Part shown: positions 12,514 through 15,519 of the stretch, in pieces
How positions within the stretch are numbered: position 1 is the first letter of the stretch
Layout of the letters: every line of letters begins with the position of its first letter
DNA from: a virus
Taxonomy: Duplodnaviria; Caudoviricetes
DNA length: 33,183 nt
IMG/VR virus record: IMGVR_UViG_3300016265_000187
Coordinates: 1-33,183 of that record
Direction: 5' to 3' (one strand)
Notes under the pieces: model-generated
Database searches by the model: none
What the model saw: the letters and a program-made list of their open reading frames with translations, nothing else
Told to the model about the DNA's origin: nothing
Position numbers and translations under genes: made by a program

Positions 12514-12535
12514 AGTATTCTCCTAGTATCATAAG

Positions 12536-12565
12536 AGAATAACAGAATGAATAGTATAAAGTCAA
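12536..12565 (-). promoter_or_regulatory. Sigma70-type promoter TTGACT-N18-TATTCT (extended TG) for dNMP kinase
   Basis: -35 at 12565-12560 and -10 at 12541-12536, preceded by TGT. Confidence 0.6.
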
Positions 12566-12574
12566 TTAAAAAGG

Positions 12575-13360
12575 TTAACCTTGCACCCAAGTTAATGGTT
12601 GGGATCCATCCACATATCGTCTTAAATCTTCTAATAGCTGGGCCTTTGCTTCTTTGCCTTCAGCTTTCATAGCAGCACCGTTTAGTGAAGTGCCACCTGA
12701 CGGACCTGCGATACTGTTAAACTTTTCACGGGCTTCACCAATGATACACTTTAGTTCTGCTAAAGTAAAATCTTGTAACCAAACGCCAATGCTGGGGTCT
12801 TGTAGCAGCACTACTTCAGGGCGCTGGATGTCCGCCCAAATAAGAATTCTTTCACCAGACCCTTTGAAATCTCTAACTATACGCAACACCTTTGTTACCG
12901 GATCAAAAGTATAAGTTAAATAACCACCAAACATTCTTGCTGCTAACTCTACATAACCAGCATAAAAGTCATAAGTTGCCAAACCACCTGCATAGTTATA
13001 GTTTAACAAATAAGTATTAAGTATCGCACTTGAGAAAGGATCAAATGAAGTAGAAGAAGGACCAGTTTCTAGTCCAACAGTTCTACGATATAAACATCGC
13101 ACATTTATAAACTCGCTGGGTAAAGTATATGTGTCAATATTTTTTTCTACGGTAAAAAGTGTATAAGATTCTTGTGTTGCGTTTTGTGCCCTTGCACGAT
13201 AAGTGGCAATAGTATAGTTATACGCGGCTTCTAAATGCGTAGGATCAACTTCAAGATCAATGATATCTTGTCCTAAGCGGTACAAGCATTGATCAAATAA
13301 TTGTTCTTTTAATTGTGTTAGGTTAAGATTGGTTGGTACACTTAGTGGTGTTGTTGCCAT
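12575..13360 (-). CDS. Neck protein / head-tail adaptor (T4 gp13-like)
   Basis: 261 aa with RLG..IID.E near the N-terminus and W...F..A..K..IGEAREKF..I.GP.GG.SLNG..MK.EG at the C-terminus, typical of gp13 homologues. Late box at 13385-13392. Confidence 0.85.
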   Translation of the reverse strand: MATTPLSVPTNLNLTQLKEQLFDQCLYRLGQDIIDLEVDPTHLEAAYNYTIATYRARAQNATQESYTLFTVEKNIDTYTLPSEFINVRCLYRRTVGLETGPSSTSFDPFSSAILNTYLLNYNYAGGLATYDFYAGYVELAARMFGGYLTYTFDPVTKVLRIVRDFKGSGERILIWADIQRPEVVLLQDPSIGVWLQDFTLAELKCIIGEAREKFNSIAGPSGGTSLNGAAMKAEGKEAKAQLLEDLRRYVDGSQPLTWVQG

Positions 13361-13384
13361 AATATTTTATCTCAATAATATGTG

Positions 13385-13392
13385 TATTTATC
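13385..13392 (-). promoter_or_regulatory. Late promoter box GATAAATA
   Basis: Upstream of the gp13-like gene. Confidence 0.7.
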
Positions 13393-13426
13393 ACTTAGAG
13401 TAATAGAAAAGGATATTCTAAGGGCA

Positions 13427-13825
13427 TGGCGAGTAGATATGAACCTACTCGGCCAAATCTATCTTATTCTTGAGGTACTTAGGCAACGATGAATTCAAAC
13501 ATTACAGTGGAGGATTGTCTATGTCTCACTAACCCTAAGGGAGTTTGCCGTATTCGCTGTTATGCTAAAACGCGATTCACCGAGGAGTTTTAGCCAGCCC
13601 AAGAGTATCTATCGCAATTACCATCTCTTGGCAACTTCAACCAATAAGACACAAGAAACGTTACCAACAAGGGTTGGTCGTTTTAGGCATCCCTGTTCGG
13701 GGTAGTCTTGTGAATGGAGCCACTGATCTTACTCAGTTCAAGCTTAGGCCCACTTCCTGTACCCACACAACACGGATTGAGGTGGGATTTGGGTGCTGAT
13801 TATGGCCAGCACTTGCCTCGCTTGA
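13427..13825 (-). ncRNA. Candidate large structured non-coding RNA (family unrecognised)
   Basis: Only long intergenic gap in the window, visibly more GC-rich than its flanks. At least 11 mutually compatible nested helices; two stem mismatches resolve as G-U pairs only on the minus strand. Confidence 0.7.
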
Positions 13826-13840
13826 TATGTTATAGACGTA

Positions 13841-14269
13841 TCAGAGGTCGCCCTCTTTTCTGTTCTCAGAGTAGTAAGGGTCAAATTGTCCACCGGGATA
13901 TCTAGCTTCAAGCTTCTTTACATTTTCAGCAATAATATCGTTTGGATCGTAACCCAATGCTCTACACGCATTGATCCAGTACCAGATAATATCACCTAAT
14001 TCCCTTTTCATATGAAAGCGATTTTCTTCATTATATGGCTTTCCTTGAAACGCCATCTTTTTAACGATCTCGCTAAACTCACCGCCTTCACTAGCCAATC
14101 CAATAGCAGCAGTAAGCAGCAATGGAAAGTTAAGTTGAATACCATCTAGTACTGCTTGTTTCTCTAATCGGTGTGCGTTATCTACAAATGCTTGTAGATC
14201 GTTTGACTCATTGCTGGTTACTGTGGCAACGAATCCTTGATATTTGTTCAAATCAACTTGCTTGCTCAT
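13841..14269 (-). CDS. mazG: MazG-like nucleoside triphosphate pyrophosphohydrolase
   Basis: All-alpha NTP-PPase motif GLASEGGEFSEIVKK...KRELGDIIWY...N..KL..RYP. Confidence 0.88.
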   Translation of the reverse strand: MSKQVDLNKYQGFVATVTSNESNDLQAFVDNAHRLEKQAVLDGIQLNFPLLLTAAIGLASEGGEFSEIVKKMAFQGKPYNEENRFHMKRELGDIIWYWINACRALGYDPNDIIAENVKKLEARYPGGQFDPYYSENRKEGDL

Positions 14270-14278
14270 TCTTGCTCC

Positions 14279-15460
14279 TTAAAATGCTTTCAATATGATC
14301 ATGTTGGCATTGAATCTGCCGTTAGGTTGTGTAACAACAGCTTTAATTTCTTTAAAGAACTTTCTAGCTGCTGGTTTGCTACCTGTAATTTGTTTTAGTT
14401 GTTCTTCAGGCTTGCGTAAAATCTTAGCTTCACTTTCTTTTGTGTCAAAGCCCAAAAGTGTATTACCTTTAACGATCAAACACTTGCTCATTTCGTCAGC
14501 AACATAATGATACAACTTTCGCTTAGCTGTATCATAAACCCAAGCCTCTGAAGAATTGTGGAGCTTAGTGGGTTCAATACTAACCAAGTTAAGTTTTGTT
14601 TTTTCGTCAACAAACTTACGCAAGTATTTTAGTTTAGATACTTGTTTTTCTACTGAGATAGGCTTGCGAACACGTTTAGCTTTAGTTGTTTGCTTTAGCG
14701 CAACATATGAATTTATGTTGCTGATTATTTGTTCAACAAATTTAATCAAATTCTTGATTTGTGCTTTACCTAAATGAGAATAGCCTTCAGCAAGTTGTTC
14801 GTCTGTATCTTTTTGAACTTCCAAAAGTTCTTGTTTGATATCATCAAAAGGACTGATAATAATAGAAACATGTTGTGGCAAAATACTTTTTTCAGACAAC
14901 ATATTGATTACTTTGCTAGAAGTATCGGATACGGTTTTACAACCTTCAGCTATGTAATCATCTACCATACCCAGTATTTCTCCAGATACATCGTGTGCTC
15001 GCTCACGCATAACTACTTGAACGTTTCGCTTGTTTGCTTCTTGTTCTTCTGTTGCGTCTAGTTCAGGTTTCTCTGGCTCTTTGTCGCCTTCAATCAACCG
15101 ATTGATTTCTTTTGTCAATCTTTCTTTTTCTTCATCTAGCAGATTAAATCCGCGTTGCGAAAAACGTGCTAACCAACCATATGTAGCAACAATTTTACTA
15201 TCGGATACACGATTTAGTTTTTTCGCGGTGGCAGCATCACCAGTTTGAATTACATAATCTACTATAAACTGTTTTGCTTCTTTATTAGAACAAAAGTAAT
15301 TGTACCAATTAAATGCTTTACCCAAAATAGATGATCGTTTATCAAGTGAAGGTTGCTCTAAAACTTTGGGTTCACCACCATGCCCTTTTAGACCCATTAA
15401 GTCTTTGGGTTTCAAATCTTTAGCAATTTCGCCCAAAACAACAGTCTTAGTTCTAGCCAT
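14279..15460 (-). CDS. Hypothetical phage protein (early)
   Basis: 393-aa basic ORF with a strong AAGGAG SD, behind a near-consensus sigma70 promoter. No motif recognised. Confidence 0.75.
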   Translation of the reverse strand: MARTKTVVLGEIAKDLKPKDLMGLKGHGGEPKVLEQPSLDKRSSILGKAFNWYNYFCSNKEAKQFIVDYVIQTGDAATAKKLNRVSDSKIVATYGWLARFSQRGFNLLDEEKERLTKEINRLIEGDKEPEKPELDATEEQEANKRNVQVVMRERAHDVSGEILGMVDDYIAEGCKTVSDTSSKVINMLSEKSILPQHVSIIISPFDDIKQELLEVQKDTDEQLAEGYSHLGKAQIKNLIKFVEQIISNINSYVALKQTTKAKRVRKPISVEKQVSKLKYLRKFVDEKTKLNLVSIEPTKLHNSSEAWVYDTAKRKLYHYVADEMSKCLIVKGNTLLGFDTKESEAKILRKPEEQLKQITGSKPAARKFFKEIKAVVTQPNGRFNANMIILKAF

Positions 15461-15490: not shown

Positions 15491-15519
15491 ATTCTAGCAT
15501 TATATATCGGTGTTGTCAA
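15491..15519 (-). promoter_or_regulatory. Strong sigma70-type promoter TTGACA-N17-TAGAAT (extended TG)
   Basis: Perfect -35 at 15519-15514, 17-nt spacer, TGC then TAGAAT at 15496-15491. Confidence 0.85.

Follow-up and report, generated by a model that had tools for sequence, protein, structure and literature searches.

A conserved structured RNA, predicted ahead of a late virion gene, in jumbo phages and small tailed phages

A predicted structured non-coding RNA of about 410 nt, recognised as a new family from homologues and covariation, occupies positions 13415..13830 on the minus strand of the viral DNA analysed here in full (33,183 nt, hereafter the window), which is a 33-kb fragment of a T4-like jumbo phage and about 10% complete. 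The RNA is common to jumbo phages and to small phages that likely live off a jumbo phage, and it likely ends the early transcript ahead of a late virion gene. Few RNA classes are both large and densely conserved, and where a function has been assigned to one, it is mostly that of a catalyst or of a component of core machinery. Beyond what GOLLD and ROOL offer, this RNA provides three functional handles: its tail pairs in two conserved ways, the silencing hairpin downstream is measurably lost, and jumbo phages share it with small phages that appear to depend on them. Its length of about 410 nt and its many natural variants open it to direct assays of cleavage, termination, switching and structure. 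The original prediction of a large, uncatalogued minus-strand RNA at the end of an operon stands in outline, but its third domain and its kissing pair are not supported, and the 393-aa protein proposed as a partner is an unlikely dedicated one.

The gap between mazG and the neck gene

Profile scans recognised sheath, tube, neck, primase and helicase genes in the window. Downstream of the RNA lies the head-tail adaptor Ad2 (neck) gene (12575..13360; phrog_211, E 1.7e-22), and upstream a mazG-like pyrophosphatase gene (13841..14269; phrog_229, PF03819) that is preceded by the first gene of the operon, encoding a 393-aa protein with no assigned function (14279..15460; phrog_11903); these, like all features below unless stated, are on the minus strand. 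A sigma70-type promoter-like site with an extended -10 (15491..15519) matches at 11/12 and is the likely source of the transcript, in agreement with the proposal that the RNA ends an operon driven from 15519. The candidate RNA also stops, as had been supposed, ahead of a late box: the late-promoter-like GATAAATA (13385..13392) lies within a weak hairpin (-4.4 kcal/mol) over the ribosome site of the neck gene, and it is read as a putative late promoter by its likeness to TATAAATA of T4 (PMC3014915).

The 393-aa protein (pI 9.2), which had been put forward as a partner of the RNA, is unlikely to be a dedicated one: it is encoded by phages whether or not they carry the RNA at the mazG-neck site, it has relatives in 26 records of a cultured-phage collection in which blastn detected no RNA homologue, and in those small phages that had their genes scanned it is not encoded beside the RNA. 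Searches returned no Pfam family and no usable Atlas match for this protein. This basic protein is conserved ahead of mazG, with relatives in Cr30, phiM12 and PA5oct-like phages. Elsewhere around these genes, a terminator-like hairpin on the plus strand lies at the mazG stop (window 13843-13856), and just 5' of the RNA several relatives carry a GC hairpin accompanied by runs of A or U. The interval between the neck and dNMP kinase genes (window 12514-12574 and homologues) holds a promoter-like site, to which many relatives add a strong hairpin that covers the ribosome site; such promoter-like sites precede the dNMP kinase gene in RNA carriers and non-carriers alike, so that they do not discriminate the two classes by their need for read-through.

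The gap itself (13361-13840, 480 bp) is the sole long non-coding one, the next largest between listed long ORFs measuring 107 bp, and it is GC-richer (0.46) than the neck gene (0.39), mazG (0.40) and the window as a whole (0.36), as first noted; all 11 helices originally named pair at their coordinates in this window. Folding energy is weak on both strands: the minus strand scores a z of -1.9, matched by 3 of 100 shuffles, and the plus strand -1.4, and 14 homologues average -1.0 for the RNA strand and -1.5 for the other. It is the comparison across homologues that settles the matter: the observation is confirmed, and it is a larger finding than first noted.

The first homologues came from loci reached through the neighbouring proteins (73-97% identity), and further ones from scanning viral, metagenome and GTDB contigs for sequence patterns, followed by a profile search, in which members scored >70 bits (nearly all >120) and chance matches <15. 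The family comprises about 90 distinct phage sequences. Among these, 86 are distinct and full-length, with a mean identity of 69% (lowest 48%), and 53 fall below 90% identity; rows discarded were 19 chance matches in an earlier set, and 3 chance and 7 short ones in compiling the 86-sequence set. A later scan added five further types, including locus L394 (about 660 nt). GTDB genomes yielded no member (three pattern matches, all chance), and blastn with three divergent queries gave no true match in cultured phages.

In the alignment of the 53 members below 90% identity, from which the fold was itself derived, 94.6% of 4268 cells across 82 pairs are paired and 61 of the 82 pairs change on both sides, with many single pairs showing three or four swapped types. 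None of 500 shuffles reaches the family's pairing and slid partners reach 37-43%, although these controls lean toward the fold because the structure was drawn from the same sequences. Across the 53 rows, 54 columns are invariant, many of them in joining strands. The strand first proposed from G-U extensions of two stems is borne out, since G-U cells in the alignment outnumber A-C cells by 167 to 45, which fixes the minus strand as that of the RNA. Relative to the neighbouring neck gene (75-76% DNA identity), the RNA element is the more conserved, at 93, 88 and 89% in three homologous loci (L003, L006 and L031). Protein coding was considered and rejected: no reading frame is conserved across homologues, the longest stop-free frames in 11 sampled rows span 46-80 codons with strand and frame varying, and indels are of all lengths. 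Among four wastewater runs, one 200-nt contig over 13651-13850 appeared in two, with other genes at similarly low cover, which speaks neither for nor against expression.

Conserved fold and comparison with known RNA classes

In the predicted fold of the family, five helices (P1, PK0, PK1, PK2 and PK3) cross as pseudoknots, all of them missed in the original fold, and four of the pairings named there are not those of the family. The closure of its domain 3 (13462-68/13643-49) is only 50% paired across members, the pairing 13482-86/13545-49 within that domain 63%, and the GCGAU/AUCGC kissing pair 65%, while 13782-86, assigned to 13749-53, pairs in the family with 13762-66 instead.

P1 (13825-20 with 13743-38; 13738..13825 overall) changes on both sides at 6/6 pairs, its columns following the majority register, and it is a pseudoknot because its 3' strand sits in the loop of hairpin P3b (13751-47 with 13721-17); a hairpin over the 3' segment of P1 is found in 53/53 rows, and in some it pairs into part of the strand. 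P2 (13812-07 with 13798-93) lies with PK0 in 13793..13818; PK0 joins 13818-15 to the P2 loop (13806-04), is 95.7% paired and changes on both sides at 3/4 pairs, this window having only 3 pairs. The P3 hairpin (13762..13786; 13786-82 with 13766-62) is 99.2% paired. The P4 domain (13640..13712, PK3 included) is built from 13712-06/13656-50, 13682-79/13660-57 and 13678-73/13668-63; P4 changes on both sides at 7/7 pairs, and the crossing helix PK3 (13688-86 with 13642-40) is 98.7% paired, with C-G in 28 and U-A in 23. Hairpin P5 (13599..13631) is 100% paired, with 6/7 pairs changing on both sides, and its loop (13616-13608) forms the 5' strand of PK2. P6 and P6b (13556..13598, placed by the alignment) carry in loop 13582-75 the 5' strand of PK1, whose 3' strand at 13487..13494 is 99.1% paired with it and changes at 6/8 pairs on both sides; L394 retains 10 pairs of PK1 in a different sequence. 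P7, a three-way junction (13496..13547), contains a nearly invariant 12-nt loop (13523-13512) for which we found no partner inside the RNA.

No Rfam model (4227 families, E up to 5-10) matches over the RNA in the window or in 21 homologue loci, consistent with the initial view that the family is uncatalogued, and the same library finds a true GOLLD (203 bits) elsewhere in the complete carrier genome G002. A literature search judged by titles and the starts of abstracts returned no description of the RNA. Its motifs are absent from four of the six supplements of PMC10690425, and the remaining part of that source may hold the family as an unnamed candidate. The family fails every family test run, "ornate phage RNA" serving as a descriptive umbrella only.

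Its nearest analogues by general character are GOLLD (Rfam RF02032) and ROOL, which are likewise large, phage-borne and rich in pseudoknots, with function unassigned and no known protein partner. Both form RNA-only particles, and some of their covariation-predicted pairings proved intermolecular (PMC12286853). Unlike them, the present RNA has about 410 nt, matches no model, precedes a late promoter, and has a two-way 3' tail and paired repeats. GOLLD often lies beside tRNA arrays, whereas the window contains no tRNA and the RNA of G002 is at 81.6 kb, its array being near 225-241 kb.

The absence of tRNA, tmRNA, RNase P and group I signatures, noted at the outset, extends to the family. Two-piece tmRNA is similar in size, has several pseudoknots and occurs in the same carrier phages, but ARAGORN found no tmRNA or tRNA in the window, the T-arm word is in 0/53 members, there is no tag frame, and the permuted tmRNA of genomes G001 and G002 is a gene separate from the RNA. 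In RNase P, the CR-I and CR-V motifs form P4; here the CR-I word (2 mismatches) occurs in 4/53 on the RNA strand and CR-V in 0/53 and 1/53, the CR-I matches in 42/53 on the other strand being the complement of a conserved loop. In group I introns, the R and S elements form P7, with R following P4-P6; among the 53 members R is found in none, S in five and a complementary pair in two, and an R-like word precedes a P4-like helix, which is the wrong order for group I. No gene is interrupted, the RNA sitting between intact ORFs, and no group II core motif is in the right place in the 53 rows. Group I introns, the lariat-capping ribozyme GIR1 and RNase P RNA have conserved joining strands and a bulged long-range helix involving the 3' end. 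The present RNA shares both traits, but its 5' end pairs locally rather than with its 3' end, and it has no Rfam match.

Two other candidates were rejected. A template RNA for a reverse transcriptase (retron, DRT or DGR) was sought through PF00078, which is present in 0/5 carrier contigs, one of them complete, with a control positive in 3/14. For a fragment or mimic of 16S, 23S or 5S rRNA there was no profile match, and words shared with E. coli rrnB are at chance level.

The 3' tail and the leader of the neck gene

In mazG-neck spacers that lack the RNA, a hairpin spans the late-promoter-like ATAAATA and covers the ribosome site of the neck gene. T4 silences late genes on early read-through transcripts by such a hairpin over the ribosome site (PMC3014915). 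The neck leader resembles the T4 silencing hairpins of gene e and I-TevI in having its late promoter in the 5' part of the hairpin; it differs in that hairpin decay is here accompanied by a 400-nt RNA, and no such RNA figures in the available portion of the T4 description (PMC3014915). The mean energy of the neck hairpin is -3.9 kcal/mol with the RNA (49 leaders) versus -11.9 without it (44 leaders), and hairpins of -4 kcal/mol or lower are found in 25/49 and 44/44, respectively; the hairpin is weaker with the RNA in 8/8 independent contrasts on the neck tree, and spacers carrying extra ORFs keep it. The weakening behind the RNA suggests either that the RNA is where early transcripts end or are cleaved, or that its tail covers the site. 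With the tail included in the fold, the ribosome site of the neck gene is mostly paired (33/52 at <0.2 unpaired).

The tail can pair in two ways. A 3' hairpin (13427..13457) has a 3' arm (13437-13427) that doubles as the 3' strand of PK2, and because both use this arm, the two are mutually exclusive. In PK2, eight pairs are 100% paired, with a further pair, 13616/13427, that is U-A in 27 and A-U in 23, and the helix has six invariant pairs, two swapped pairs and two bulged C; predicted mean energies are -13.2 kcal/mol for the 3' hairpin and -11.9 kcal/mol for the PK2 duplex. Position 13427 varies in step with both of its partners, and L394 retains both the 3' hairpin and PK2 across a 115-nt insert, which argues that both tail folds are under selection; the 3' hairpin is weak in 2/53 rows. 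Two direct repeats flank this hairpin, copy 1 (13466..13475), with an anti-Shine-Dalgarno-like CCU core, changing in step with copy 2 (13415..13423, placed by sequence comparison) in several lineages. The repeat words occur rarely in the remainder of G001 and G002, no partner strand for them was found inside the RNA, and an extension of PK2 overlaps copy 2. The hairpin's U-tract is poor, with only 3 U in the 8 nt past it in 44/52, and its strength does not track that of the neck hairpin (rho 0.12). A TAAATA word lies within 120 nt past the tail in 47/53 rows versus a 6% background, which favours early transcripts ending at the RNA, though most rows share the neck context.

The reading that we prefer, at a probability of roughly 0.45, is that of a discrete RNA whose 3' hairpin ends the early mazG transcript and whose tail then locks the core, after which the RNA would act in trans as a free particle in the infected cell. 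Comparison establishes its base, namely the fold, its strand and the tail's two exclusive pairings, and the later steps would run as follows. On the growing RNA, the local 3' hairpin would form first and mark the 3' end, which, given the poor U-tract, would arise by pausing with factor-aided release or by trimming. The tail would then dock onto the P5 loop as PK2, closing the core and hiding the 3' end. Early transcripts would cease to run into the neck gene, and for that reason its silencing hairpin would decay. Least certain, and modelled on GOLLD and ROOL, is a last step in which the closed RNA might serve in trans as a scaffold or decoy, possibly oligomerised through loop-loop pairs, its target being a host or helper factor on which jumbo phages and small dependent ones both draw. 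We hold a discrete RNA to be the best reading because the RNA moves from one backbone and promoter to another, occurs by itself in one lineage and retains 54 invariant columns. That lineage is L394, where a separate 11/12 sigma70-type site lies 150 nt ahead of the RNA and the roughly 1 kb past it holds no same-strand ORF >38 aa. Counted against the discrete RNA are the poor U-tract, a 3' hairpin whose strength does not track that of the neck hairpin, the mostly paired neck site when the tail is present, the small phage G016, in which the stretch from the RNA to the next gene is free of TAAATA, and the repeats, for which it does not account.

The paired ribosome site and the repeats would also fit a switch in cis for the next late gene, in which the 3' hairpin frees the CCU repeats to block the ribosome site, PK2 over copy 2 opens it, and the core senses a ligand, a protein or time. 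Repeats do form better duplexes with their own leader than with shuffled ones (37/39 and 26/39, 14 of the 53 rows being left out for lack of a clear leader or repeat), a weak local hairpin goes with a stronger repeat-leader duplex (rho -0.34, p 0.035, 39 rows), and the overlap of the PK2 extension with copy 2 is what such a switch would use. However, any CCU pairs with AGG, and specificity for the own over other leaders is weak (p 0.21, 0.15 and 0.10; 0.04 only as the best of two, over 17 types and uncorrected). Late transcripts, moreover, begin downstream of the RNA and bypass it, and L394 has no nearby gene to control. Overall, we consider a switch of this kind unlikely.

The arrangement of PK2, which puts the tail beside the most conserved bases, could alternatively be that of a self-processing ribozyme of new fold, cutting at or near the repeats and thereby freeing the RNA and uncoupling the neck gene. 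The invariant columns, many in joining strands, the six invariant pairs and two bulged C of PK2, the lack of a good terminator, the lack of a conserved promoter close upstream in jumbo members, and co-varying repeats that would suit two sites read by one pocket all speak for catalysis. The family nevertheless lacks correctly placed core motifs of group I, group II or RNase P, has no Rfam match and no internal guide complementary to the repeats, and a downstream cleavage piece would still carry the ribosome site of the neck gene; we rank self-processing behind the switch in cis, as a doubtful alternative to a discrete RNA.

Occurrence across phage genomes

Among 93 distinct members, 75 lie upstream of a neck gene, nine have too little flank and nine have no neck gene in the flank examined; several further members have other ORFs, or up to 1.4 kb, between RNA and neck gene, an independence from any one gene that favours the discrete RNA. 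At loci reached by protein, the RNA is found in 10 of 55 distinct mazG-neck spacers, the rest holding ORFs or only 27-63 bp, and the site is thus a hot spot. On a quick neck tree, with carriers sampled by motif, the RNA label changes 7 times versus 36.8 when shuffled, at least four gains or losses are forced, and carriers sit on deep branches. Carrier genomes that were checked have one copy each. The complete carrier G002 (364 kb) has its copy at 81.6 kb, together with a separate GOLLD, a permuted tmRNA, >40 tRNAs and no RT, and a relocated copy was found in none of five contigs with an empty site, which are 15-29% complete.

Patchy presence at the site and occurrence in unrelated backbones might suggest a selfish mobile RNA or, given the S-like word in 5/53, the diverged form of a known class (group I-derived, GOLLD, tmRNA, RNase P or RT template RNA). 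The RNA, however, interrupts no gene, is single-copy and follows clades, the five carrier contigs (one complete) have no RT, and the scans that miss this RNA find a true GOLLD and a permuted tmRNA elsewhere in a carrier genome; of all the readings considered, this one seems to us the least probable.

The carriers are an RNA-rich phage group, and loci L367:7205-7668 (G002), L374:2011-2432, L359:12208-12284 and L383:8987-9409 (G001) include GOLLD in a large tRNA array, permuted tmRNA and freshwater-2 RNA.

The RNA is present in at least three phage backbones. Several members away from the mazG-neck site belong to phages estimated at ~34 kb that encode terminase, portal, capsid and tail proteins; the tailed phages G016 (L428, L429) and G012, G014 and G015 (L420-L423), of 34-35 kb, are of at least two types. 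Jumbo-type (G)ATAAATA words precede structural genes in the small phages, with coding versus other strand counts of 9 vs 2, 9 vs 3 and 3 vs 3 in three stretches, and in L421-L423 the word also occurs 120-280 nt upstream of the RNA. A third backbone type is represented by G016 (35.3 kb, 99% complete by CheckV), in which the late-promoter word occurs 15 times on the coding strand versus 2, and none of the 30 scanned ORFs matches a polymerase, primase, helicase or sigma factor, 18 having no PHROG match. We infer that the small phages probably depend on a jumbo helper, and they may be satellites of the jumbo phages.

A bolder synthesis would have a new large RNA machine or ribozyme with five pseudoknots time the change from early to late expression by cutting or ending its own transcript through the tail switch, and have it captured by small, replication-less phages that live off the late transcription and replication machinery of the jumbo phage. 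We put this forward tentatively, as improbable on the whole.

Carriage by small phages with no recognised replication gene would also suit a replication primer RNA or a DNA-level element, such as an R-loop origin with the repeats as protein sites, for which ColE1 RNA II and the T4 origins are models. The 3' end does combine a pair of direct repeats with an inverted repeat and an AT-rich stretch. Against an origin, the element of G002 (81.6 kb) is far from the turning points of GC skew (about 5 and 195 kb), the spacing of the repeats runs over 46-55 with no helical phase, and the long-range pseudoknots and G-U pairs indicate RNA, which makes a role as primer or origin very unlikely, though not quite as much so as a mobile or diverged element.

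Several smaller features accompany the family. Two members, L146 and L159, have near-identical 5' and middle parts and different 3' modules, each with matched repeats, from which the RNA appears to recombine by modules. The far member L394 (L394:1915-1255, minus strand, and 1 kb beyond), on a jumbo phage fragment, has long inserts and lies in a mostly gene-free stretch that may hold further RNAs. In the small phages, the RNA and a TAAATA word are followed by a second small conserved hairpin motif (L421:4195-4265), which is also found after the RNA in L124, L132, L350, L279 and L240, has a 98% match in G015, and finds no more than weak short matches in G002 and G011. At the other end of the window, positions 1-940 hold the start of a long minus-strand open frame that has Gly-Ser-rich repeats, runs off the window end and is tail-fibre-like by composition.
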